Shown piece after piece: positions 9,456 through 31,715 of a DNA stretch of 32,000 nucleotides; within the stretch, counting starts at the first letter, position 1; each line of letters starts with the position of its first letter. The stretch is from Promethearchaeum syntrophicum (GTDB lineage: Archaea; Asgardarchaeota; Lokiarchaeia; Sigyniarchaeales; Promethearchaeaceae). Position numbers and translations under genes: made by a program. The stretch is taken from contig NZ_CP042905.2 of the NCBI RefSeq assembly GCF_008000775.2, positions 1,800,001 through 1,832,000 of the forward strand, written 5' to 3'. Below the pieces are notes generated by a model. The model had not been told where the DNA came from. It worked only from the letters and a program-made list of their open reading frames with translations, and did not search any database.

Positions 9456-9803
9456 ATGATAGAATTTTTTCAAGAGATCCTGATATCATTAAAAAAAATT
9501 AAAGGTATTCATGGAAGTGCAATAATTGAAAGGTACGGGGGTATAATTAGTTCAACATTACCTGGTTGGGTAAACCAAGAATTAATTGCAGCGTTGGCTA
9601 CTCATATCTTGAAAATTAGCGAAAAATCCGCTTCTGAATTAAATTTAGGGACTTTTTTGGATGCAATTATTGAGAATGAAAGAGGAAAATTACTCTTTTA
9701 TGCCATAGGTGATAAAATCGTTAGTGTTATCACAACTCATGATGCAAAATTGGGGATTTTAGATATGAAACTCAGGGCTGCTTTAGAAAAATTGAAATTT
9801 TAA
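9456..9803 (+). CDS. Roadblock/LC7 (MglB-like) domain protein
   Basis: 115 aa. IKGIHGSAIIERYGGIISSTLP...LLFYAIGDKIVSVITT follows the Roadblock/LC7 alpha-beta-alpha pattern. Confidence 0.7.
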   Translation: MIEFFQEILISLKKIKGIHGSAIIERYGGIISSTLPGWVNQELIAALATHILKISEKSASELNLGTFLDAIIENERGKLLFYAIGDKIVSVITTHDAKLGILDMKLRAALEKLKF

Positions 9804-17882: not shown

Positions 17883-19274
17883 TTGGATGAAAAAACAAAA
17901 AATGGATTGGATCAAAAAAGTGTGATTAAACCAACCGATACATTCCCTGATAATAATATAGTGTATAGAGTTGCGCATTTTATTCAAAAATATAGAGTTA
18001 ATAGATTTTTCCAATATGTTCCCTTCACAATTTTTAGAGCTCTCTCTGTTCCAATTGGTTTTCAGCATGCAGTTAATGGCCATTCTCAATTATCGAAGAC
18101 ATGGAAATTCCTATACCCTCCAAAATTCTTAGAGAAAATTAATTTAAAAAGATGGACAAATTCCTTTATTCGGTACAATATTCAACTGTATTTTGATCAG
18201 GCTTTATATTTATCACTTAGAAATTCAAAAAATAAAGATTTTTTCCATCCTGTAGTTGGTTTAAACCACCTTGAAAAAGCGATTCGCCAAAAAAAGGGGG
18301 TACTAATACCCTTAATTCATTTGGGGGAATATCTCCACCCTTTATATACGCTTTTCCATCGCAATGTAAACGTGGCTGAGAATTCCCAAAAAATTTTTGT
18401 TGCTGCGTTATCCTCGAAAGAGAACGAATTCCTTTTTAGAGAAGAAATTAAGAAAATTGATAATCTTTCAGCAATTATTACAACGGATTTTAAATCTGTG
18501 CAAAAAACAGTTCAATTTTACTTAAAAAAAAATTATTGTGTATTTCTTGCTCAAGATTACTACGCTAAGAAACAATTAAGAGTGCCCTTTCTCTACAATT
18601 CAAAATTCTACAATTTTCTCACACCTTGTCCTCAGATGTTAACAAATCTCCATCTAAATTTAGGATGTCCTATTATTCCAGTAACTACATACCCAAGACA
18701 GAATTTGAAATTCTCCGTTGTAAAATTCCTACCTGAAATTAATCCTATGACTGTGGATATTTCCAATGAAGATCAAACACTTCAAAAAGAAATCATGAAA
18801 TTTCGGGATGGAACTCTTACCAAAAAGCAAAAATATGGTTTATTATCTCTCTTAATTAATAGAAAGCTGAATTATTATTTATTACAGTACCCCTATTTAT
18901 GGCAAGGAGCATTTCTATTCTTCGATAGAACCCAGTTAAGAATTAAGTTTAAAAATGTAAAGTCTTACATTCAAATGTTGAAAATTAGTATTTCAAAATT
19001 AGTATTATTTATCCAAAATTCATATGAACCTGGTAGAAAAGATGAAGTTATTTTAAATACTTTAAAAACCTTTATTGCTGATTTAGAGGAGATTAAAGAG
19101 GATCCAAGAGACATCGTCACTTTAAAAAATAGTTATATTGAAATTAGTTGCCTTAATGGGAAAAAAGTATTTAATAAAGTTGTTAAAATTCTATTAACCT
19201 ATCAAAATTCCCATATTAAGCAAAACCACAGTTTCATTTCTCCGAGATTAAAATCCCTACTAAAGCTATTTTAA
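17883..19274 (+). CDS. LpxL/HtrB-like lysophospholipid acyltransferase family protein with C-terminal extension
   Basis: TTG start with GGTGA 8 nt upstream. KKGVLIPLIHLGEYLHP corresponds to G(V)xxxxxHxGNWE. YLKKNYCVFLAQDYYAKKQLRVPF corresponds to ALKKGExVxxxxDQD...xFxPFF. LQYPYLWQ corresponds to PEQYLWxHRR. These comparisons are from my memory of E. coli LpxL. Confidence 0.5.
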   Translation: MDEKTKNGLDQKSVIKPTDTFPDNNIVYRVAHFIQKYRVNRFFQYVPFTIFRALSVPIGFQHAVNGHSQLSKTWKFLYPPKFLEKINLKRWTNSFIRYNIQLYFDQALYLSLRNSKNKDFFHPVVGLNHLEKAIRQKKGVLIPLIHLGEYLHPLYTLFHRNVNVAENSQKIFVAALSSKENEFLFREEIKKIDNLSAIITTDFKSVQKTVQFYLKKNYCVFLAQDYYAKKQLRVPFLYNSKFYNFLTPCPQMLTNLHLNLGCPIIPVTTYPRQNLKFSVVKFLPEINPMTVDISNEDQTLQKEIMKFRDGTLTKKQKYGLLSLLINRKLNYYLLQYPYLWQGAFLFFDRTQLRIKFKNVKSYIQMLKISISKLVLFIQNSYEPGRKDEVILNTLKTFIADLEEIKEDPRDIVTLKNSYIEISCLNGKKVFNKVVKILLTYQNSHIKQNHSFISPRLKSLLKLF

Positions 19275-19405: not shown

Positions 19406-20740
19406 ATGATAAATGAATTAAATGAATTTCGCTTGAAATTTAAAGAACAATGGTGGTGCGTTAGCGCCTTTACTGACCTAGATAATGAAAATTTGACTGA
19501 TGAGATTGAAAAATTGAACAAGTATACAAAAAATCAACTTAGTTCTTTTAAAGAATCAGATATTAACCCAAGATTCGTGCCGGATGCAAATGATCGACAA
19601 AAAATTGCGTTTTTATCCCAAAACCTCCAAATTGAGCTAACTTGGGATAATTATATTGACAATTTCAATTTTAAAACTGATAATTACACCTACGATAAAT
19701 TAGGTTATTTATTATTTCGCATTCGGCTCAAAGATAATTCAAGTGTAAATATTTTCGATGTTAGACCTAATTATCTGCAGCAAATTATTTTCCATGTATG
19801 GTTTGGATTAACTAAGAAATTCCAATTTGAATTTAAATTCGATGATTCAACTCCTCCCTACATTGTATCTGTTTGCTCTGGAACTAATAATAATTCTGTA
19901 ATTGAATGGAAAAAGGAAAATATTCATAAATATAAATCGGAATTAGGTCAGTGGATCCAATTATATTCTGGACAGTTTCCCGATTATAGAGATGAATTAT
20001 ATGAAAGACGAATTGAAGTCGATCTATCAAATCGAACATCCGAAATGCATTTTATAAATCGTAATTCTGGTTTAATATATATGGAACCTGATAATTATAA
20101 GCGATTTTTTATCAAAGATAAAGATTCTCCTGATTCTAGCGGATATATGCATAATACGGTTGTTAGAACCATTATTCAAATCCGTTCTATCGCTTTTGCA
20201 ATGATAGTTGTTAGCAATGAAGTTGATAAAGACACCGGACAATTAGGTTCAGATGAATTTATGGCTAAAAAATCAAAAGAAATAAAAGATAATCTAGAAA
20301 AAACTAATAAACTAAAATTAATTCTGCAAAAAACGCTTTCTCCATTCTTTTCAGATTTGACCCGTTCTCATCGACAACATTATCATGCTGTACTTAAACG
20401 TTGCGTCGAAATTAATGAAATTGAGAAAAATTGGAAACTTATCCTCGAAAAAATTGATTCAAATACTCAAGAAATGAATTCAATCTTTTTAGATAAACAA
20501 GAAGAAGCATCTGACCGACAGGAAAAAATTCTTAACATGGTCAATATCATATTAGGTGCAGGAATTGTATTTGATATTATAGGATTTATTATTTCTGAAG
20601 AAAGTGTCCAAAAATTAATAGTTCAAATCATCGGTGGGGGATTATTATTGTTTCTTGTAGTATTATTCCTGAAATTATATGGTCCAAAAAGAAAGAAAAA
20701 AACGAAAAAAAAGGAATCTGAAAAGGGAGAAGAAGATTAA
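19406..20740 (+). CDS. hypothetical membrane protein with CorA-like topology (soluble N-domain, helical stalk, 2 C-terminal TM helices, polybasic tail)
   Basis: TM helices ILNMVNIILGAGIVFDIIGFII and LIVQIIGGGLLLFLVVLFLKLYG are separated by an 8-aa loop and followed by KRKKKTKKKESEKGEED. Residues ~260-370 are a charged helical region. There is no GMN motif. Confidence 0.6.
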   Translation: MINELNEFRLKFKEQWWCVSAFTDLDNENLTDEIEKLNKYTKNQLSSFKESDINPRFVPDANDRQKIAFLSQNLQIELTWDNYIDNFNFKTDNYTYDKLGYLLFRIRLKDNSSVNIFDVRPNYLQQIIFHVWFGLTKKFQFEFKFDDSTPPYIVSVCSGTNNNSVIEWKKENIHKYKSELGQWIQLYSGQFPDYRDELYERRIEVDLSNRTSEMHFINRNSGLIYMEPDNYKRFFIKDKDSPDSSGYMHNTVVRTIIQIRSIAFAMIVVSNEVDKDTGQLGSDEFMAKKSKEIKDNLEKTNKLKLILQKTLSPFFSDLTRSHRQHYHAVLKRCVEINEIEKNWKLILEKIDSNTQEMNSIFLDKQEEASDRQEKILNMVNIILGAGIVFDIIGFIISEESVQKLIVQIIGGGLLLFLVVLFLKLYGPKRKKKTKKKESEKGEED

Positions 20741-20755
20741 AGGGAGATAATTTAA

Positions 20756-23578
20756 TTGGCAATTGAAATCAATAAAACTCCAAAACCTTTAACTGAAATT
20801 CTTTCAGAATTACACGGTGAAGGTTTTATCATATATGCCGGAGCGGGGATATCTATTCCTGCCCCAACATGTGCACCATCTTGGTGGACTCTAACCGAAG
20901 AAATTCTCTCTGCTTTTTTTAAACGCGTTCCAGATGAATATGGATTACCTGGAGATATGATAATTAAAAGCGAAATTTGGCAACCTGAGATTATTTTTGA
21001 AAGTTTTGCAAAATTATTTGACGAATACCTCTATAAAGTTTTTCCTGTACTTGATGTTGCTCAATCAAACGGAAATCATCGAATTATTGCTCAACTAGCT
21101 AAACTTGGCGTTTTAAAAGCCGTTTTTACAACGAATTTTGATATTTATATAGAAAAAGCACTCCGCGATGAAGGTGTAGAATTTGAAGTTATAATTGATA
21201 ATGATCAATATGATGAACTTTATAATCAATTAAGCTCCCAAGGTTTTGGTTCCAAATTTCTCCTTTGTAAAATTCATGGAACCACAGAACGCCCAGATAC
21301 TATTGTAAGTGTTGCGTCTGCCTATAAAAGTTCAAAAGGATTTTCTCCACCAAAATCTCAAGTCCTTCAATGGTTAATGAAACGTTATCCAACTTTGTTT
21401 TTGGGATATTCTGGTTGGGATTTTGAACATAACAATTATCGAAAATTTTGGGATCGCACGGGACCGACTTTAAAACATATTTATTGGAATCGACGTCCGG
21501 GAGAAACTGGAGGGCCAAATTTCGATACGATTTTTAGTTCATGCAAGAATAAATTCGATTTCTGTGAATCCGATCTTCCAAGTGGATGGCTTAATGCTTT
21601 AAAACAGAACGTATCTTTGGGATTTGAAGAAATTGAAAATCAAATTTCAACAATTGAAGATCTATCGAATCAAATAAAGGATAAAAGACAAGAATTTCTT
21701 AATAATTGGGCAATGGCTATCTCCGAAGCCTCTACTCTTGCTGCGGTTATAACTGAAGGAATTCATTTCTCTGCAGCATTTCGGACTAAATTAGAGCAAA
21801 CCAAACAACAACAAGCAGCTCAGGTTCAAGTTTCTCCTGAGAAAATGGCAGAGCTTCAAAGAAAAAATCAAGAAGTTACTGCTAAATTACAAAATCCTTC
21901 CTTAACAGCAGATGAGAGAGCAACCATCATGCAAGAAATGTTCTATACCCAAATGGAAATGCAGCTTTCTTACATTAAACCAGAAGAAAAAGAGATGATC
22001 AAACACCTTTTCATCGAAAATCGATATCCTGGAATTACCGATAGTCAAATTTATAGACCCCAATTTTTAGGAAAAATAACTCCTTGTCTGGGACGCTTCT
22101 CAGCTGCTGAAGCTATCGATATCGCTCTTGATTTTATTAATCGGGATATAGAAACACAGAAGAAACAAGCAGAGATGCAAGCTGCAGGTAAATCAACCCA
22201 AGAAGCCTTTGAATTTGCTCAGGCTGAAATGGATGTAAACCGAGCTATTTTTGGTATCATGCAACCCGAAGAAGAAAAATGGAAACCTGCTTATGATGAA
22301 ATGTTAATTTCAAAAGAAAAATTTTTCGCAAAGGAAATAGATAGAGCCGCATTTATGGCGGAATTGGCGGGAATTTGTGAAAAAGCCGTTAAAAAAGATA
22401 TGGGTTTGGAAATTCCAGTAATGGATTTACTATCAAAATTAGTTCAAAATACTGCATCTGCTCCAACTCCAGAAGAATTTAATGAACGATGCCAAGCTTT
22501 ATTTCTTGCGGTGACAATGGCTGCTGCAAATTTTAACTCTCATTTGATGAAAACTGCCGAATCTAATGCTTTAGTAAAAGCTATGATGGGAGGAGTCACA
22601 AACGCTCCAAGTGTACCTGATCCTGCAATGATTCAACAATCTCAACAAGCTATGGCCGCTAAAGCTAAAGAATTAATGGCTCTTATGCAAAGCGGGGAAA
22701 TTGATGGGACTGAATACGGTAAACGCATGCAAATTTTCGTTGCTGAAAATCAAAAACGATTTCAACCGAAACCAATTGAAGGAAAAGGATCAGATGGTCG
22801 TGTTTTAGTCCCTCTTGAAATATTATCGGCATATGATAACAAAATCAGGGAACTATTTGGCCCCGCTTTTGATGCAGAAGCTCGATTTGAGGGTGATAAA
22901 ATATCACACGCTGAAATACTCCTCGAAATGTGTGTTTTGAGCCTATGGTTAACAATTGCTCAGGCAGGAGATGCAGAAAGTGGTCAGAAATTTCAAGTAC
23001 TCATGGCTCGCGGTGACTTCCCAATTACCTCGGGAAATGCTTCCGTTATATCATTTTTAATGGAGAAGAATAAAAATTGGATCGAAAAAGCAATGAATGA
23101 ATTACCCGCTCGATTCGGTCAACAACTCTGTACAAATCTTGTAACTGTTTCTAAATTAACGGATGATATTGAATTATGTAAACGCGCAACTCTTAAAAGC
23201 CTTGAATACACGGATGGAAAAATTAATGAATCCAATGCTTATGAGGTTCCATATACTCTAGCTCAATTCTATGAAAATCGTGGTGATGAAATTAATGCTT
23301 TAAAATATTGGAATCTCGCGCTTGATGGAGTAAGAACTTCCGTCCCTCCTGCATTCACTGATGTTATTCTATACCATACTGCCAAATTAACAGCAAAAAA
23401 TGGAGATAAACAAGTTGCTCTAAAAATGATAGGGAAATTACACCCGAATTATTTGGGAAATGAGCCACCATTTAAAACTCCCGCTCGTGATATGTCCCTG
23501 CAGCTAGCACAAAATTTGGCCCAAGAGCTTGGATATTCCACTGTAGAATCCGCTTTACAAGCATTATTGGAGCAGTAA
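20756..23578 (+). CDS. SIR2-like (NADase-type, SIR2_2-like) domain protein with long helical middle region and C-terminal TPR-like repeats
   Basis: TTG start with GGGAG 8 nt upstream, 15 nt after the preceding stop. Motifs IIYAGAGISIP (aa 25-35), FTTNFD (N127, nt 21134-21136), CKIHG (H174, nt 21275-21277) and LFLGYSGWD. No Zn-ribbon cysteines and no P-loop. C-terminal TPR-like segment: YTLAQFYENRGDEINALKYWNLALDG. Confidence 0.75.
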   Translation: MAIEINKTPKPLTEILSELHGEGFIIYAGAGISIPAPTCAPSWWTLTEEILSAFFKRVPDEYGLPGDMIIKSEIWQPEIIFESFAKLFDEYLYKVFPVLDVAQSNGNHRIIAQLAKLGVLKAVFTTNFDIYIEKALRDEGVEFEVIIDNDQYDELYNQLSSQGFGSKFLLCKIHGTTERPDTIVSVASAYKSSKGFSPPKSQVLQWLMKRYPTLFLGYSGWDFEHNNYRKFWDRTGPTLKHIYWNRRPGETGGPNFDTIFSSCKNKFDFCESDLPSGWLNALKQNVSLGFEEIENQISTIEDLSNQIKDKRQEFLNNWAMAISEASTLAAVITEGIHFSAAFRTKLEQTKQQQAAQVQVSPEKMAELQRKNQEVTAKLQNPSLTADERATIMQEMFYTQMEMQLSYIKPEEKEMIKHLFIENRYPGITDSQIYRPQFLGKITPCLGRFSAAEAIDIALDFINRDIETQKKQAEMQAAGKSTQEAFEFAQAEMDVNRAIFGIMQPEEEKWKPAYDEMLISKEKFFAKEIDRAAFMAELAGICEKAVKKDMGLEIPVMDLLSKLVQNTASAPTPEEFNERCQALFLAVTMAAANFNSHLMKTAESNALVKAMMGGVTNAPSVPDPAMIQQSQQAMAAKAKELMALMQSGEIDGTEYGKRMQIFVAENQKRFQPKPIEGKGSDGRVLVPLEILSAYDNKIRELFGPAFDAEARFEGDKISHAEILLEMCVLSLWLTIAQAGDAESGQKFQVLMARGDFPITSGNASVISFLMEKNKNWIEKAMNELPARFGQQLCTNLVTVSKLTDDIELCKRATLKSLEYTDGKINESNAYEVPYTLAQFYENRGDEINALKYWNLALDGVRTSVPPAFTDVILYHTAKLTAKNGDKQVALKMIGKLHPNYLGNEPPFKTPARDMSLQLAQNLAQELGYSTVESALQALLEQ

Positions 23579-23717: not shown

Positions 23718-23915
23718 ATGAGTGATGGATCGAACATTAAACAAATGGTGGTTGATTTAATCCGAAACCTACCTAATGATGTCACCCTTGAAGATATTCA
23801 GTATCATTTATTTGTAAAGCAAAAAATACAAAAAGCAGAACATCAAATTGAAGCTGGTGAGATAATCCCTCATAAAGACGTTATGGAGAATTTAAAAAAG
23901 AAATGGTTTCCATAG
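23718..23915 (+). CDS. type II antitoxin (small helical addiction-module component paired with ParE/RelE-like toxin)
   Basis: 65-68 aa (GTG at 23709 or ATG at 23718). Overlaps the downstream toxin gene by 13 nt. Paralogous to 25733..25909. Confidence 0.65.
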   Translation: MSDGSNIKQMVVDLIRNLPNDVTLEDIQYHLFVKQKIQKAEHQIEAGEIIPHKDVMENLKKKWFP

Positions 23916-24193
23916 AGTGGACACAAGAGGCTAATTTTGATTTTAATGAAATTTTGGCATACTTGTCAAATGCTTCTCCACAATACGCACATGCTCTTTT
24001 TGAAAAAGTGAAGGATGCTTTAGTGAATTTGAAAAAATTTCCTAAATTAGGTCGAAAAGTTCCTGAATCAGATAATGAAAACGATAGAGAATTAATTATT
24101 CAAAAATATCGATTGATTTACCGCTTTGTTGAAGATGTTGATAAAATATTTGTCCTAATGATAATCCATGGTAGTCGAATTCTAAACTTCTAA
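23903..24193 (+). CDS. ParE/RelE-superfamily type II toxin (plasmid stabilisation system protein family)
   Basis: 96 aa. WTQEANFDFNEILAYL...FPKLGRKVPE...RELIIQKYRLIYRF...IFVLMIIHGSR is the typical ParE/RelE layout. Confidence 0.75.
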   Translation: MVSIEWTQEANFDFNEILAYLSNASPQYAHALFEKVKDALVNLKKFPKLGRKVPESDNENDRELIIQKYRLIYRFVEDVDKIFVLMIIHGSRILNF

Positions 24194-24982: not shown

Positions 24983-25600
24983 ATGCCAAGCAGAAGAGCA
25001 GATAATACATTAGTGTTTAAAGTAGTGTTCTGGGGTCCCTCAATGGGCGGTAAAACGTGTGCATTGGAGTGGATATATCAGAAAGAGGGTCTTGCTAGCG
25101 GTAAACTTCAATCTATAACAGATCCTACAGGGCGGACTCTTTTCTTCGATAGAGTTGTTGCAAAAGTGTCTAATGTTGTATTTCAAACTTACACTGTAGC
25201 AGGTCAACGTAGGCATAAATATCAAAGAAAAACCGTTTTGAAAGGTAGCGATGCATTAGTATTCGTTTGGGATTCTTCATCCGATCAGTGGGAAGAAAAC
25301 ATCTTTTCTCTAAAGGAATTATTGAACTTTTATGGCCCTAAAGTTATGCCTGGTGCTGATGGTAATACTGAAGTTCCACTCGTTCTGATGGCTAACAAGA
25401 GAGATTTACCTAATCCGACCCCTATTGATAAGATTAGAGAAGTTTTGAACGCTGCGAAACTGAGTAATGTTTTAATATATGAAACGATAGCAATTACAGG
25501 CGTTAATGTGAAGCGAGCATTTGTGTTTTCTGCACGTGAAGCTGTTTTAAGACATTACATGCGTTTACAATCAGGTGCCACGGTCCCGAAAGCAGAATAA
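24983..25600 (+). CDS. mglA: MglA-like Ras-superfamily small GTPase
   Basis: G1 FWGPSMGGKT. Switch region GRTLFFD. G3 YTVAGQ (MglA-type TVxGQ instead of DxxGQ). G4 NKRD. Collinear with my recollection of Myxococcus MglA (KIVYYGPGLCGKTT...DRTLFFDF...LYTVPGQ...LKGVDGVVFVADS...YNKRDLPNA). Confidence 0.8.
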   Translation: MPSRRADNTLVFKVVFWGPSMGGKTCALEWIYQKEGLASGKLQSITDPTGRTLFFDRVVAKVSNVVFQTYTVAGQRRHKYQRKTVLKGSDALVFVWDSSSDQWEENIFSLKELLNFYGPKVMPGADGNTEVPLVLMANKRDLPNPTPIDKIREVLNAAKLSNVLIYETIAITGVNVKRAFVFSAREAVLRHYMRLQSGATVPKAE

Positions 25601-26227: not shown

Positions 26228-26419
26228 TCATCGAATCTCTTTAACTCGACCTATTTTTCCTGAGGTTAATCGCACTTTAATTCCATGAGGATGTTGTGCA
26301 GAATTAGTTAATAAATCTTTCACAATTCCAGTAGTTAATTCCCCGTTACGTTGATTTTGCTTCTCGACAATTGATACGGATAATCCGGGTTTTATGTTTT
26401 TTCTAAAATTTCCTTGCAT
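26228..26419 (-). CDS. YwbE-like small conserved protein (DUF2196-type)
   Basis: 63 aa. RKNIKPGLSVSIVEKQNQRNGELTTGIVKDLLTNSAQHPHGIKVRLTSGKIGRVKEI matches the YwbE-family consensus as I recall it. Confidence 0.65.
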   Translation of the reverse strand: MQGNFRKNIKPGLSVSIVEKQNQRNGELTTGIVKDLLTNSAQHPHGIKVRLTSGKIGRVKEIR

Positions 26420-26701: not shown

Positions 26702-27946
26702 ATGCAATTAGTGATATTACAAGATATTGACCCCGGAACTATAATCGGAGCAATATTTATTGGATTGGCATTGATCATTGCTTCAGGGGTATTTTTTTAT
26801 TTCAAAAATATGATTGTGGTGCCATTTAACGAAATTCATGTTATATCGAGTGGAACTAAGACAAAAACATTTGATGGAAAAGGAAGGTATTGTTTTATAA
26901 AATTTCTCATGAGTAAAACAATAATTCCAAAGCATGTCCTTGACATCGAACCGGGATTATTAGATCTCCTTGATTGCGACAATCTTCCATTCGGTGTGGA
27001 AATATCTGTCAAAGTACAGGTAACTGACCCTCAAAAAGCAGCGGCTACTTTAACACGAATAGATCATAGTACCGTTGCCAAAGTTGTAGAAGATACTGTA
27101 ATGTCCGCAGCAAGATCCATTGCTATGGAGAGAACAATTCTAGATATTATGAAAAAACGTGAAGAAGTCGAACAACGAGTTTACAGTATGGTAGCAGATG
27201 CCTTGGGCAAGCTTGGATTATCAGCTATAATTTTTGACATCAAAAATATTCGTGATACTGAGGGAAATGATGTAATCACCTCATTGGAACGAGTTAAAAT
27301 TGCAGAATTGCGGAAAAATGCTCAAGTGGCCGAAGCTATTCATAATAAAGAATCCTTCGTTAAAAGTGAACAAATGAAACAAGAACAAGAAACTGCAAGA
27401 TTAATTAAAGAACAAGATATCATTGCTAAGCAAGTCCTTGTTGATCAAGAACGTTTAATCTTAGATAAACAACAATCAACCAAGAAAGCTGAAATCGAAA
27501 AAGAACGTCTAAAAATAATGGCAGAAGCCGAAAAGGAAAAAAATATGATAGATGCTGAAGCAGAAGCAGAAGTGATCAGAGTAAAAGCAGAAGCAGAAGC
27601 AGAAGCAATCAAGTTGAAAGCTATAGCTAATGCAGAAGCTATTTTAAAGAAAGGTATTGCAGAAGCTGAGGTTCTAAAGAAGAAAAATGCTGCTATGGGG
27701 GGTAATTACGCAGCTCAAATAGAATTATCAAAGATTTTAAGTAAAGCTCAAATTGATTCCGCAGGAAAAATTGCTGAAGCCCTGGGAAAAAATAACAAAA
27801 TAATGTATCTTCCAGTAGATGGAGATAACGGGCTACTCTCAAATTTCTTGCCGAAAATCGATGCCTTTTTCCAATCTGGAATACCCACTGATATTATGGG
27901 ACAATTGTCTGGGAAAAAAAATATTAAAAAACTAGCTTCAAAATAA
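26702..27946 (+). CDS. flotillin-like SPFH/band-7 domain protein
   Basis: N-terminal TM/hairpin IIGAIFIGLALIIASGVFFYF, then an SPFH core (VVPFNEIHVISSG...FGVEISVKVQV). A long coiled coil carries Glu-Ala repeats (AEAEAEVIRVKAEAEAEAIKLKAIANAEA), the flotillin hallmark. The track ORF from TTG 26636 adds a poly-Lys leader encoded by an A-tract, so I prefer ATG 26702. Confidence 0.85.
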   Translation: MQLVILQDIDPGTIIGAIFIGLALIIASGVFFYFKNMIVVPFNEIHVISSGTKTKTFDGKGRYCFIKFLMSKTIIPKHVLDIEPGLLDLLDCDNLPFGVEISVKVQVTDPQKAAATLTRIDHSTVAKVVEDTVMSAARSIAMERTILDIMKKREEVEQRVYSMVADALGKLGLSAIIFDIKNIRDTEGNDVITSLERVKIAELRKNAQVAEAIHNKESFVKSEQMKQEQETARLIKEQDIIAKQVLVDQERLILDKQQSTKKAEIEKERLKIMAEAEKEKNMIDAEAEAEVIRVKAEAEAEAIKLKAIANAEAILKKGIAEAEVLKKKNAAMGGNYAAQIELSKILSKAQIDSAGKIAEALGKNNKIMYLPVDGDNGLLSNFLPKIDAFFQSGIPTDIMGQLSGKKNIKKLASK

Positions 27947-27983
27947 TACTTTTTTTTTTAAAAATTTTTTTGAGGTGAAGAAA

Positions 27984-28631
27984 ATGGTAAAGGTTCCTGT
28001 GGGCGAAAAGGTTGAAATAAATCTTTGGGATTCGGACAAGAAACGCGGAATTGCTAAATATTTTTCGAGTACGATGGATCTTGTAAGAGCAGAAAGTGAA
28101 TTTGAACTTAATCCCGGGGATACTGCAGTGGTAGTAGAATCTTATGATAGTTTTATCGTTGTAGTGCCAGAAGATGACTATACAAAGTTATTAAGTGGAA
28201 AGAATATTGAAAATATTGATCCTGTTGGCTTAAATAGACAAATTTATAAAATCTTAAAGGAAAGAATGAAAGAAACCGGTGGAATTCTATCCCTTGATGA
28301 ATTATGGTCTATTTTAAATCGAACTTCGATCCAAAACATATTAGATAAAAAAGATCTTAAAAAAGCCATTAACATAAAAGATAGTCCGTTCGATAGAATA
28401 AAGGTCGAAGGGAGGGTATATATAGCTCTTCGTCCCCAAGAAAATATGGAAGATATAAAATTAATAGTGAAATTTGGGAGAGAAGCATCATTTCTAACGA
28501 AAAATCTAATTCGCACTTCCTTTAATTGGTCAGATTTACGTATAGAACGTTTACTTTGGTACTTAATAGATCAAGGGTCCTGCAGGATTGAAAATCAATT
28601 CAGAACGGGTACTCGTTATTATTTTTTATAA
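27984..28631 (+). CDS. EAP30 (ESCRT-II Vps22/Vps36-like) tandem winged-helix protein with N-terminal NfeD-like beta domain
   Basis: GAGGTGA lies 5 nt upstream of ATG 27984. Compared with human SNF8 from memory: ETGGILSLDELWSILNRTS...KKDLKKAI...VEGRVYIALRPQE matches NGGLITLEELHQQVL...QDDLIRAI...VGGTYLIQSVPAE, and NMEDIKLIV...FNWSDLRIERLLWYLIDQG...GTRYYF matches NMDHTVVLQ...LKWETERARQVLEHLLKEG...EAHYWL. The N-terminal LVRAESEFELNPGDTAVVVESYDSFIVVVP resembles the NfeD C-terminal OB-fold. Confidence 0.6.
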   Translation: MVKVPVGEKVEINLWDSDKKRGIAKYFSSTMDLVRAESEFELNPGDTAVVVESYDSFIVVVPEDDYTKLLSGKNIENIDPVGLNRQIYKILKERMKETGGILSLDELWSILNRTSIQNILDKKDLKKAINIKDSPFDRIKVEGRVYIALRPQENMEDIKLIVKFGREASFLTKNLIRTSFNWSDLRIERLLWYLIDQGSCRIENQFRTGTRYYFL

Positions 28632-28917: not shown

Positions 28918-30978
28918 ATGAACAAGCATTTCACAATTTTTGCAGTAGTTCTTACAATGTTAACGCTCAACTTTGGCTTAATTGAGGTAGCAGAAAGTGT
29001 GTCTGATCAAACTGAAACGTTAAAGTATGGGGTAGATCCTGGTTGGCCTCCAGGGGAATTTGTTGAGGATGGGAAAGTCAAGGGATTTGATGTAGATTTG
29101 GTACAATTAATCGGGGATTATATGGATTGTGAGGTGGAATATTATCCGATGGATTGGAACGATGTGTTAGAATCAGTAAAAAATGGTTCATTGGATATAT
29201 TATGCGCGACAGATACCCCTGAACGTCGTGAGTTTTTTGATTTTAGCAAACCGATTTTAAATCTTTCTAATCGAATTTTTGTAAATGAGAAGGTTGTGGG
29301 CATTTCTAATGTAAATGATTTGGCAAATCATACTGTAGCGGTAGTGAAGGAATATGCAACTCATGTATATCTTGAAGAGAATGTACAAGATGTGCACATT
29401 GTTGTTGTAGAAAATGTTGAAGAAGGTTTAGAGATGCTAGTAAACGGGGAAGTGTTTGCACTTTTTGATGAGATGCATATTGTTTCATATTACATTCAAG
29501 AGCATAATTATGAAAATCTTAAGGTGATTGGAGATGAATTGGTATTTGGACCGTTTTGTATTGCTGTGAAGAAGGGAAATTCAAGTTTACTCGAAAAAAT
29601 AAATTCAGAAATTGATAATATTTTTGAAGCTGGTGAATATGACAGAATATATGAAAAATGGTTTGGAACTAGTTTCACCTCGGGCCCGTTCTCATGGGAA
29701 ACCATTATAGTAATTTCTATTATAGTTTGTGTCTTAGCAAGTGGTTTAGGGATTGTCAGTCTATGGAACAGAACTTTAAAAAAACGAGTTAATGAGAAAA
29801 CAATTGAGCTGAAAATGGCTCAAAATGAATTATTGCAATCTCAGAAGATGGAAGCCATTGGTCAATTTGCAGGGGGTATTGCACATGATTTTAACAATGT
29901 CTTAACAGTAATACTTGGGTTATCAAATTTAACAATAGATTCTCTAAGAGATGAAAATGAAGAAATAAATAGAAATGAACTTATAAAAAATCTTGAAGAT
30001 GTCTTAAGAGCGGGAGATAGGGCTGCAAAGCTGACAAAGGACGTACTCACTTTCAGTAGAAAACAAGTTTTCCAATCGCAAATCGTGAACCTTAATAAAT
30101 TACTTAAAAATAATAAGGATATGTTAGCGAGGGTGTTGGGGGAAAATATTTCTTTTAATTTAAAACTGGATCAGGAGAATAAAAGCATTGAAATTGATCC
30201 AAACCAGATGTCATTGGTTATCTTGAATATGGCAATTAATTCACGTGATGCAATGCCAAATGGGGGAGATTTTACAATAGAAACTTCTAGAACTTATTTA
30301 TCAAAAGGATTAAAAGGTTTTAACTTAAAACCAGGAAATTATATTAAGATTTCATTACGGGACACGGGCATTGGAATGGATGAAACTCACAAGCAGCATT
30401 TGTTTGAACCATTCTTTACAACTAAAGAAAAAGGGAAAGGAACAGGGTTAGGATTATCGATTGCGTTTGGAATCATAAAACAATACCATGGGGAAATAAA
30501 AGTAGAATCAAAATTAGGAACGGGAACTGTTTTTCATATTTATCTTCCAGAGATTGATGTGATCGATCCTCAAGATGATGAGATTATACTAAAAAAACAA
30601 GAAACTCTGAATGGGAAAGAAACTATTTTACTTGTGGAAGATGAAGAAATGGTTAGGAAATTTGCGTTTAGAGTATTAAATTCTCATGGTTATAATTGTT
30701 TGGAAGCTAAAAGTCCAAAAGAAGCCATTAAAATTTCACAAGAATATCATGAGAAAATTGATTTATTATTGAGTGATGTAATAATGCCAGATTTTTCTGG
30801 GCTTGAACTTAAGAAGAAAATTGAAAAGAGACATCCCGATATGATAATATTGTTTATTTCAGGTTATGATGCAAACATAATAAGCAATAATGGAGAATTA
30901 GAAGTGGGTATTAATCTACTTAAAAAACCGTTTTCATCAATTGAATTATTAGAGAGAATTCATTTATTACTAAATTAA
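28918..30978 (+). CDS. hybrid sensor histidine kinase (periplasmic solute-binding sensor, HisKA, HATPase_c, receiver)
   Basis: Signal/TM helix FTIFAVVLTMLTLNF. SBP_bac_3-like domain (YGVDPGWPPGEFVEDGKVKGFDVDLV). A second TM helix (IIVISIIVCVLASGLGIV). H-box GGIAHDFNNVL. N/G boxes NMAINSRDAM, DTGIGM and GTGLGLS. Receiver domain ILLVEDEE...LLLSDVIMPDFSG...LKKPF. Confidence 0.9.
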   Translation: MNKHFTIFAVVLTMLTLNFGLIEVAESVSDQTETLKYGVDPGWPPGEFVEDGKVKGFDVDLVQLIGDYMDCEVEYYPMDWNDVLESVKNGSLDILCATDTPERREFFDFSKPILNLSNRIFVNEKVVGISNVNDLANHTVAVVKEYATHVYLEENVQDVHIVVVENVEEGLEMLVNGEVFALFDEMHIVSYYIQEHNYENLKVIGDELVFGPFCIAVKKGNSSLLEKINSEIDNIFEAGEYDRIYEKWFGTSFTSGPFSWETIIVISIIVCVLASGLGIVSLWNRTLKKRVNEKTIELKMAQNELLQSQKMEAIGQFAGGIAHDFNNVLTVILGLSNLTIDSLRDENEEINRNELIKNLEDVLRAGDRAAKLTKDVLTFSRKQVFQSQIVNLNKLLKNNKDMLARVLGENISFNLKLDQENKSIEIDPNQMSLVILNMAINSRDAMPNGGDFTIETSRTYLSKGLKGFNLKPGNYIKISLRDTGIGMDETHKQHLFEPFFTTKEKGKGTGLGLSIAFGIIKQYHGEIKVESKLGTGTVFHIYLPEIDVIDPQDDEIILKKQETLNGKETILLVEDEEMVRKFAFRVLNSHGYNCLEAKSPKEAIKISQEYHEKIDLLLSDVIMPDFSGLELKKKIEKRHPDMIILFISGYDANIISNNGELEVGINLLKKPFSSIELLERIHLLLN

Positions 30979-31057: not shown

Positions 31058-31306
31058 ATGTCTAATGATGCAAGTAAACAAGCGATTGAATTTTTTGTTA
31101 AACGCGGGGATTTAGCAAATACTACAGCAGATCATCATGTGCGTGATAATGAATTTGCAAAGGGAGTAAAATTATATCATCAAGCATATAGTTTTTATAA
31201 GAAAGCACTTCAAAGTATGCCAGATGATGAAGAATTGAAGCAGAAATTGGAAAATGTTCGGGAAAAATACCAGAATGCAAAGGAAAAAGATAAACTTAAA
31301 GGATAG
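31058..31306 (+). CDS. standalone MIT-like three-helix domain protein
   Basis: GGTGA lies 9 nt upstream. KQAIEFFVKRGDLA...DNEFAKGVKLYHQAYSFYKKALQSMPDDEELKQKLENVREKYQNAKEK is collinear with the VPS4A MIT domain recalled as [65 protein letters not shown]. Confidence 0.5.
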   Translation: MSNDASKQAIEFFVKRGDLANTTADHHVRDNEFAKGVKLYHQAYSFYKKALQSMPDDEELKQKLENVREKYQNAKEKDKLKG

Positions 31307-31331: not shown

Positions 31332-31715
31332 TTAGAAAAATTGTTCCTCTAATTGGTTTTTAAAATAAGTGAAGAAAGTTAAATCTCCCTCCCATTTCTC
31401 GATTATAATCGAGAATTCTTCGAGAAACATGTCTCTAATTTTTTGCAGTTGCTTTCTAATTGCACTATCTTTTTCTTTGGTTTTTGAACGACCGATAACA
31501 AAAAATGGAATTGGCTTCTTGACTGGGATTATCATGATTTTTGAATTTCTCATTTTTATAGCGTCGATAGAGTCTTCTGCCAAGTTTTGAACAGCCGACA
31601 TGAATCCTGAAAAGATCATTGGGTTTATACCTTCACCAATATCCTTAGATTTAGCCGATAGGTAAGGTAAACCGTTTTTATTAATGATCCATAGTTCTTC
31701 TAGTTTTAACGCCAT
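31332..31715 (-). CDS. longin-/roadblock-like alpha-beta domain protein (putative GTPase-regulatory module)
   Basis: 127 aa. LWIINKNGLPYLS...NPMIFSGFMSAVQNLAEDSIDAIKM...IMIIPV...FFVIGRS, then a C-terminal helix. This beta-beta-alpha-beta-beta-beta-alpha pattern is typical of longin/Roadblock-type folds. Confidence 0.5.
   Translation of the reverse strand: MALKLEELWIINKNGLPYLSAKSKDIGEGINPMIFSGFMSAVQNLAEDSIDAIKMRNSKIMIIPVKKPIPFFVIGRSKTKEKDSAIRKQLQKIRDMFLEEFSIIIEKWEGDLTFFTYFKNQLEEQFF

Follow-up and report, generated by a model that had tools for sequence, protein, structure and literature searches.

A conserved flotillin operon of Asgard archaea encodes a soluble OB-barrel protein carrying a Vps22-type tandem winged helix

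A window of 32,000 nucleotides from the Asgard archaeon Promethearchaeum syntrophicum MK-D1 (contig NZ_CP042905.2, positions 1,800,001 to 1,832,000; G+C about 31%) carries a flotillin-type SPFH gene, the first open reading frame of a pair (ORF1), followed on the same strand by a second gene (ORF2) for a soluble protein in which an OB barrel is joined to a tandem winged helix. ORF2 is 100% identical to P. syntrophicum DSAG12_02218, which is annotated as "hypothetical protein". Together, the flotillin gene and ORF2 are a conserved two-gene operon of Asgard archaea, and this pair is the conserved unit. The C-terminal 135 residues of ORF2 are a true EAP30/Vps22-family tandem winged helix, beyond a generic winged-helix-turn-helix domain, and its N-terminal domain resembles the OB barrel of NfeD, the usual operon partner of prokaryotic SPFH proteins. 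The arrangement suggests, short of proof, that ORF2 directly links flotillin microdomains to membrane remodelling by the ESCRT machinery (endosomal sorting complexes that are required for transport).

The Pfam EAP30 profile (PF04157) matched ORF2 with an E-value of 2.5e-9 and a score of 37.6 bits, above the curated gathering cut-off of 26.8, and residues 83-202 fell on profile positions 92-217 of 219. When diverse members of the ORF2 family were scanned individually, 25 of the 26 also matched this profile (best E 2.8e-12); one member each gave a weak match to HTH_60 or HTH_9. A profile built from 31 homologues, compared with the PDB, found human SNF8 (E 4e-9), yeast Vps22 (2e-6) and human Vps36 (3e-3), and a more diverse profile of the C-terminal domain found SNF8 (1.1e-10), yeast Vps22 (1.6e-8) and Vps36 (2.7e-3) and nothing else. 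Judged from its sequence, the module is nearer to Vps22 than to Vps36. The AlphaFold2 model of ORF2 had a mean predicted local distance difference test score (pLDDT) of 91.8 and a predicted template modelling score of 0.83. When this full-length model was compared with the PDB by Foldseek, the top six matches were ESCRT-II chains (E 7e-7 to 7e-4); of the Vps22 and Vps36 chains, a Vps36 chain superposed with the highest TM-score (0.42).

The alignment with human SNF8 bears on individual residues. The preliminary description of this locus, made from the sequence alone, had claimed that the last 135 or so residues of ORF2 follow SNF8 through three motifs, GG(I/L)xSLxEL, DLxxAI and NM(E/D), and through a terminal YY/YW. 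The three motifs were recovered by HMMER, which set GGILSLDEL against GGLITLEEL, DLKKAI against DLIRAI and NMED against NMDH, whereas the terminal YY/YW lies outside every alignment. Five family-invariant positions of the C-terminal domain fall within the SNF8 alignment, and all are common to SNF8: the GG of the first winged helix and an Asp, a Trp and an Arg of the second. Moreover, residue 203 is Asp or Glu in 31 of 31 aligned sequences and is aligned with D214 of yeast Vps22. We take D214 to be a residue that contacts Vps25; a literature search on the Vps22 D214/Vps25 R83 contact confirmed nothing.

The N-terminal domain was modelled twice, within full-length ORF2 and alone (pLDDT 87.6), and five strands were obtained in both cases. 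Foldseek searches of the PDB with the isolated domain returned 3WWV (PH1510-C, a stomatin operon partner; TM-score 0.63/0.72, root-mean-square deviation (rmsd) 2.2 Å over 64 columns), 2K5H (MTH693; TM-score 0.67, rmsd 2.0 Å) and 8Z5G (YbbJ in the QmcA-YbbJ cage; TM-score 0.61, rmsd 2.8 Å). These three NfeD-family structures had the highest TM-scores and the only rmsd values below 3 Å among the 50 matches listed, although the E-values were weak, at about 1e-2 for all. Ribosomal, cold-shock, Mpa and Stn1/Ten1 OB folds superposed on the domain at 4-7 Å. By its predicted fold and its gene context, the N-terminal domain is thus an NfeD-like OB barrel, for which homology with NfeD is plausible rather than demonstrated. 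The two readings of ORF2 offered in the preliminary description, an EAP30-type C-terminal half and an NfeD-like N-terminal barrel, were in this way upheld by profile and by model, respectively.

The OB domain starts at residue 1 of ORF2 and is the best-conserved part of the protein, the mean pairwise identity within the family being 58% for the OB domain, 24% for the linker and 36% for the winged helices. The two halves also differ in charge: the OB half is acidic (isoelectric point (pI) 4.4, net charge -6) and the winged-helix half basic (pI 9.75, net charge +8). No hydrophobic segment was found in ORF2, where the best 19-residue Kyte-Doolittle mean was 0.87, indicating a soluble protein without a membrane anchor. 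In one metagenomic protein of 121 aa (P0039, a single cluster), the same OB domain is joined, through a Lys-rich linker, to a CxxC...CxxC zinc ribbon in place of the EAP30 module. From this protein, the OB barrel may be a portable flotillin-docking module that carries alternative cargo domains.

With 35 proteins in a collection of 5.8 billion sequences, the ORF2 family is a small one, and it appears to be restricted to Asgard archaea. Among 1.84 billion representatives it forms, at 50% identity, 24 clusters; nearly all have a length of about 215 aa, and the rest are fragment-like. A scan of GTDB genomes gave three family loci. The named sources are Promethearchaeum, Lokiarchaeum ossiferum, Harpocratesius and metagenome-assembled genomes (MAGs) labelled 'Promethearchaeota/Lokiarchaeota', and Hermodarchaeota, Hodarchaeales and Bathyarchaeota each occur as a single label. 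In all 14 of the full-length ORF2 members examined (the window and loci L001, L003, L005, L006, L008, L010, L011, L012, L013, L014, L015, L016 and L018), the adjoining upstream gene, 1-157 nt away on the same strand, encodes a Band_7 protein of 385-433 aa. The adjacency to flotillin, on whose presence beyond this genome the preliminary description had made its proposal depend, persists down to about 30% ORF2 identity, in flanks that are otherwise unrelated. No neighbour besides flotillin is common across the family, and flanking genes are partly kept only between close contigs (for example L003/L008 and L014/L018). L014 and L018 share the order MFS - sulfatase - flotillin - ORF2 homologue - alpha/beta hydrolase - MFS. 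The sole relative without the OB domain, at L007:1615-2079, corresponds to ORF2 residues 65-215 (42% identity) and has an in-frame stop ahead of it; a flotillin neighbour is absent there too. This EAP30-only relative is either the remnant of a decayed copy or a paralogue that stands on its own.

In the window, the stop codon of ORF1 ends at 27946 and the ATG of ORF2 stands at 27984, leaving a gap of 37 nt in which GAGGTGA (27972-27978) is found 5 nt ahead of the ATG, just as had been described from the sequence. A GTG at 27975, given as the ORF2 start in a mechanical list of open reading frames, was rejected, as it lies inside the GAGGTGA site and the homologues begin at MVK(V/I)P. Because all 31 aligned homologues begin with this motif, we consider the ATG at 27984 and the length of 215 aa to be correct. 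The spacer also contains, at 27948-27971, a run of T12 and then, after AAAAA, a run of T7. These oligo-T runs may act as an archaeal transcription terminator, in which case the level of ORF2 might be below that of the flotillin. The features of the pair are listed in Table 1.

Table 1. Features of the flotillin-ORF2 pair, with positions counted from the first nucleotide of the window
Feature	Position	Strand	Extent and basis
ORF1, flotillin-type SPFH gene, first of the pair	26702..27946	+	414 aa plus stop
N-terminal hydrophobic membrane anchor or hairpin (ORF1)	26735..26809	+	residues ~12-36; Kyte-Doolittle
SPFH/Band_7 domain (ORF1)	26819..27337	+	residues 40-212; Pfam PF01145
Lys/Glu- then EA-rich helical region, flotillin-type coiled coil (ORF1)	27338..27721	+	residues ~213-340; sequence reading
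Conserved C-terminal region (ALGKNNKIMYLP...LPK.D...QSG), then Lys-rich tail (ORF1)	27722..27943	+	alignment of partner flotillins
Spacer between ORF1 and ORF2, with oligo-T runs and ribosome-binding site	27947..27983	+	37 nt; sequence reading
ORF2, soluble OB and tandem winged-helix protein, DSAG12_02218	27984..28631	+	215 aa plus stop
N-terminal five-stranded OB barrel, NfeD-like (ORF2)	27984..28175	+	residues 1-64; strands 9-16, 21-27, 31-37, 47-53, 58-62
Variable linker with one short strand (ORF2)	28176..28220	+	residues 65-79; strand 74-78 in model
First winged helix of EAP30 module (ORF2)	28221..28433	+	residues 80-150; model helices 80-93, 104-111, 122-129, strands 136-141, 144-149
Second winged helix of EAP30 module (ORF2)	28434..28628	+	residues 151-215; model helices 155-167, 173-180, 184-197, strands 200-205, 209-214

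ORF1 has the parts of a flotillin that the preliminary description had assigned to it, namely an N-terminal membrane segment, an SPFH core and an EA-rich stretch. A single strongly hydrophobic segment was found, at the N-terminus (residues 14-32), where the Kyte-Doolittle mean over 19 residues reaches its maximum of 2.66 at residue 14 (IIGAIFIGLALIIASGVFF). The Pfam Band_7 profile (PF01145) matched with an E-value of 2.5e-17 over positions 3-172 of 176, and the EA-rich stretch was read from the sequence as AEAEAEVIRVKAEAEAEAIKLKAIANAEA. The only PDB sequence matches at E<=0.001 were human flotillin-1 (3.4e-13), with which the alignment extends up to residue 313, and flotillin-2 (2e-7). The protein scored 70 bits against the bacterial FloT equivalog model NCBIfam NF058507, whose cut-off is 700; because this is far under the cut-off, we describe ORF1 as flotillin-type and not as a FloT equivalog.

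The partner flotillins are close orthologues of one another, with a mean column identity of 64%, and the orthologues of ORF1 at 11 other loci are 51-71% identical to the window protein. Across 12 partner flotillins N364, N365, K366, I367, Y369, P371, P384 and S392 are invariant, that is, the C-terminal motif NNKI.Y.P ... P ... S is kept throughout and is followed by Lys-rich tails. Contig L008 also encodes a second, unpaired flotillin-like Band_7 protein, which is 25% identical to the paired flotillin and whose alignment with it ends ahead of the conserved C-terminal region. This C-terminal region is a candidate docking site for the OB domain. The tails of the partner flotillins are Lys-rich (e.g., KKNIKKLASK) and the OB domain is acidic, a complementarity of charge that may contribute to docking.

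On these grounds we propose the following model, whose chance of being right as a whole (operon, docking of the OB barrel on flotillin and a displayed Vps22-type module that engages ESCRT) we put at about even. By analogy with the solved flotillin, HflK/C and QmcA assemblies, ORF1 would form a membrane-anchored cage on the cytoplasmic face, and ORF2 would take the place of nfeD in the SPFH operon as a soluble adaptor. Its OB barrel would dock on flotillin, the conserved C-terminal region and the SPFH domain being the two alternative sites, and binding between the OB domain and flotillin is the step that we consider fairly probable. Without a membrane anchor, ORF2 would be held at flotillin solely by this contact. 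Docking of the barrel on the flotillin assembly would place many copies of the tandem winged helix at the cytoplasmic surface of the microdomain. The most likely use of the displayed module would be to engage ESCRT components encoded elsewhere, namely Vps25, and through Vps25 ESCRT-III, or else Vps22; that the winged helices have an ESCRT partner is a tentative proposal, which we hold with somewhat less than even confidence. A flotillin-delimited membrane patch could in this manner be coupled to ESCRT-driven remodelling, for example in budding or repair. A more specific version, in which a ring of Vps22-like modules, attached by way of a domesticated NfeD barrel, coats the flotillin cages of Lokiarchaeia-type Asgard archaea and nucleates ESCRT-III round the patch, seems unlikely.

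Several results weigh against this model. The N-terminal helical region of Vps22 and Vps36 (profile positions 1-91) is missing from ORF2, as judged from the start of the Pfam match at profile position 92, and residues 1-64 form the beta barrel in its stead; according to Makarova et al. (PMC10936438), the helical region likely promotes the interaction between Vps22 and Vps36. The winged helices also evolve faster than the OB domain. In addition, Pfam scans of the window found no gene for Vps25, ESCRT-III or Vps4 among the ORFs of at least 80 aa in positions 1-24800 and seven further ORFs beyond, the scan being made without the ORF at 28918-30978, and none of the 13 related loci has ESCRT genes linked to the pair. 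The preliminary description had already pointed out the location outside the canonical ESCRT cluster. Some family members carry the labels Hodarchaeales or Hermodarchaeota, and such lineages have been reported to lack ESCRT proteins (PMC10936438). These labels look unreliable, since L014, labelled Hodarchaeales, is syntenic with L018, labelled Promethearchaeota in NCBI; the MAG labels are therefore unfit to argue for the presence of the family in ESCRT-less lineages.

The NfeD assignment meets difficulties of its own. Classical NfeD proteins are membrane-anchored and have a C-terminal OB domain, whereas ORF2 is soluble and its OB domain is N-terminal. Moreover, the OB domain was not linked significantly to NfeD by any of the sequence methods that we used. 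The Pfam NfeD profile (PF01957) had no match at E<=1 in ORF2 of the window; in two overlapping scans of 18-19 N-terminal domains it matched two members per set at E 0.027, a level equalled by Hfq and eIF-1A. A profile search with the N-terminal domain against the 1.84 billion representative proteins returned the ORF2 family only, and PDB searches with two N-domain alignments gave noise only (an Sm protein at E 0.4-0.5, for instance). When the OB domain was compared with an alignment of YbbJ by hhalign, 7 columns were aligned at a probability of 0.2, the YbbJ profile being shallow (only Enterobacteriaceae proteins at least 73% identical). Scores from hmmsearch against three NfeD fragments were 5.2, 3.8 and -1.3 bits and are too weak to count; the small positive scores came from two archaeal NfeD fragments, in the expected register, with a weak motif A.S..L..GD..vVv. 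In a control, the YbbJ profile missed PH1510-C and detected MTH693 and PH0471 only at E 0.07 and 0.1, respectively. Because this profile itself barely detects NfeD structures, we give the failed sequence link between the OB domain and NfeD little weight.

The contender that survives best is that ORF2 serves as an assembly cofactor of flotillin only, a soluble replacement for NfeD whose winged helices self-associate or stabilise the cage through ESCRT-II-like contacts between winged helices, with no link to ESCRT. The gene stands in the NfeD position of an SPFH operon, and NfeD proteins have been proposed to promote the oligomerisation of SPFH proteins (PMC13086221). Asgard Vps22 homodimerises (PMC9192718), and three of the points raised above tell in the same direction: the absence of the helical region that likely promotes Vps22-Vps36 pairing (PMC10936438), the lower constraint on the winged-helix half than on the OB half and the lack of a linked ESCRT gene at any locus examined. 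Against this stand the Vps22-family signatures, which are kept across members that are 25-35% identical and include the always-acidic residue aligned with D214; nor does oligomerisation alone obviously need a complete Vps22-type tandem winged helix. We regard a purely structural role of this kind as rather unlikely, if a serious competitor.

The basic charge of the C-terminal half could point to a different role, that of a nucleic-acid-binding winged-helix protein, either a regulator of the operon or a tether between DNA or RNA and the membrane, in which the likeness to EAP30 would reflect shared ancestry only. Both OB and winged-helix folds are common in nucleic-acid binders, and Foldseek also lists ScpB, TFIIIC, RNA polymerase III subunits and cold-shock proteins, with weak E-values. 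However, richness in Lys is expected at a G+C content of about 31%, and the only significant relatives at the level of sequence are ESCRT-II subunits. The protein-binding NfeD domains fit the barrel far better (rmsd 2.0-2.8 Å) than do the OB folds of nucleic-acid binders, and strict pairing with a membrane scaffold is atypical of a regulator. A role in nucleic-acid binding therefore strikes us as improbable. Finally, that ORF1 and ORF2 are mere neighbours without functional coupling, their EAP30 and OB likenesses being coincidental, can appeal to the possible terminator in the spacer, but it is effectively refuted by the conserved adjacency at 14 of 14 loci in unrelated flanks and sits badly with EAP30 scores over curated thresholds and with a structure model of high confidence.

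The coupling of flotillin to ESCRT through ORF2, which we favour, draws on systems that are known separately. SPFH genes are typically found in operon pairs with nfeD genes (PMC2636767), and flotillin, HflK/C and prohibitin form membrane-attached cages (PMC12478178). QmcA and YbbJ build a cage of 26 heterodimers (as summarised in PMC13086221), and cryo-tomography has shown SPFH-like baskets on Asgard membranes (bioRxiv 10.1101/2025.11.06.686947). As in E. coli qmcA-ybbJ, the SPFH gene comes first and the gene for the barrel-domain protein second. The OB barrel of ORF2 has the five strands and the size of that of NfeD (PF01957; PH1510-C, MTH693, YbbJ, YuaF/YqiJ). It is fused to an ESCRT-II module, whereas the OB domain of NfeD is fused to a membrane anchor or to a ClpP protease; in YbbJ, membrane segments precede the OB domain, and ORF2 has no transmembrane helices.

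On the ESCRT side, the Asgard ESCRT-II is reported to consist of one Vps22-like protein and Vps25, encoded in the ESCRT/ubiquitin locus, with a single Vps22/36-like gene per genome according to Hatano et al. (PMC9192718); the Vps22 of Loki and Heimdall self-associates (PMC9192718). The architectures described by Makarova et al. (PMC10936438) are Vps22 with a steadiness box, Vps25, and a winged helix with a steadiness box and zinc ribbons, and a link to SPFH was reported only in Meth_adaptin loci. ORF2 shares with Vps22/SNF8/EAP30 (PF04157) the complete tandem winged helix and the conserved GG, D, W and R, and differs in the OB barrel that replaces the N-terminal helical region. Asgard Vps22 is a steadiness-box fusion encoded beside vps23, vps28 and vps25 (PMC10936438), whereas the ORF2 gene lies beside flotillin, with no ESCRT neighbour. 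ORF2 would be a second, divergent paralogue. The canonical Asgard Vps22 was not reached by the profile search with the C-terminal domain, which returned the ORF2 family only. The order of domains, an N-terminal targeting domain and then an EAP30-family tandem winged helix, is that of Vps36/EAP45 (GLUE and tandem winged helix). The targeting domain of ORF2 is an OB barrel, presumably directed at flotillin, whereas the PH/GLUE domain of Vps36 binds lipid and ubiquitin, and we see no evidence of orthology.

Links between SPFH scaffolds and the ESCRT-III superfamily, with or without an NfeD-like partner, have been described before. An SPFH protein is encoded in the Meth_adaptin ESCRT loci, and YdjI of B. 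subtilis localises PspA (PMC10936438); bacterial operons combine PspA, flotillin and YqiJ/YuaF (PMC11237479). In those cases the link is membership of an operon with ESCRT-III, PspA or Vps4. In ORF2, by contrast, an NfeD-like SPFH-partner domain is covalently fused to an ESCRT-II module, and neither ESCRT-III nor Vps4 is encoded nearby. The parts are known, and the combination appears to be undescribed, as the preliminary description had supposed: full-text searches found no paper that combines Asgard, EAP30 and flotillin or that names the locus tags, and the recent papers on Asgard structure mining and cell biology mention SPFH proteins only in general terms. The EAP30 match of ORF2 is precomputed in public databases, so that ORF2 may have been included tacitly in counts of 'EAP30' copies. 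The novelty appears to lie in the OB fusion and the obligatory partnership with flotillin.

ORF2 adds a second, divergent member of the Vps22 family, and its N-terminal domain and strict gene partner both point to one site, the flotillin scaffold. If docking does occur, the Asgard ESCRT pathway would have in ORF2 its first concrete candidate for a route of membrane targeting, and a module found only in prokaryotes, the SPFH-NfeD pair, would have been fused to a eukaryote-signature module, ESCRT-II. If the more specific version with the ring of Vps22-like modules is true, the pair would be a prokaryotic, hard-wired counterpart of the cooperation between flotillin and ESCRT in eukaryotes (endosomal sorting, exosome formation), and ORF2, with its targeting domain and EAP30 core, would correspond in function to Vps36, which Asgard ESCRT-II reportedly lacks. 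Should the winged helices have no ESCRT partner, ORF2 would still be a new kind of soluble, NfeD-like flotillin cofactor. P. syntrophicum MK-D1 and L. ossiferum, both carriers of the pair, are cultivated Asgard archaea; because of this, and because SPFH-like baskets can be seen by cryo-tomography, the proposal is directly testable.

Other genes of the window were also inspected. The flotillin gene has, 1.1 kb upstream of it, a gene for an Arf/Ras-like small GTPase (24983-25600, + strand; Arf E 3.6e-9) and, further upstream, one for a Roadblock/LC7 protein (9456-9803, +; E 1.5e-8); both are typical Asgard eukaryote-signature proteins. At L015, an Arf-like gene likewise lies about 3.5 kb upstream of the pair, which may be coincidence. 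A divergent gene for a DUF2196 protein of 63 aa (26228-26419, - strand; E 3.6e-30) is found upstream of the flotillin promoter region and is not kept beside the pair elsewhere. Downstream, a helical 82-aa ORF at 31058-31306 (+) was considered as an MIT domain and rejected, since its matches are to consensus TPR designs (E 2.5e-6), with calpain-7 reached only at E 2.6. Convergent to it is the gene for a 127-aa protein (31332-31715, -) with a weak match to a longin domain (Fuz_longin_1, E 0.011). The two ORFs lie 2.4-3 kb downstream of ORF2 and are not kept beside the pair at other loci. Further upstream, a pair of ORFs without annotation, each of about 450 aa (17883-19274 and 19406-20740), precedes the gene for a 940-aa SIR2_2-domain protein (20756-23578, +; E 2.3e-14), and a ParE toxin gene (23903-24193, +; E 2.4e-15) comes next after it. 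The SIR2_2/ParE stretch may be a defence or toxin-antitoxin islet.

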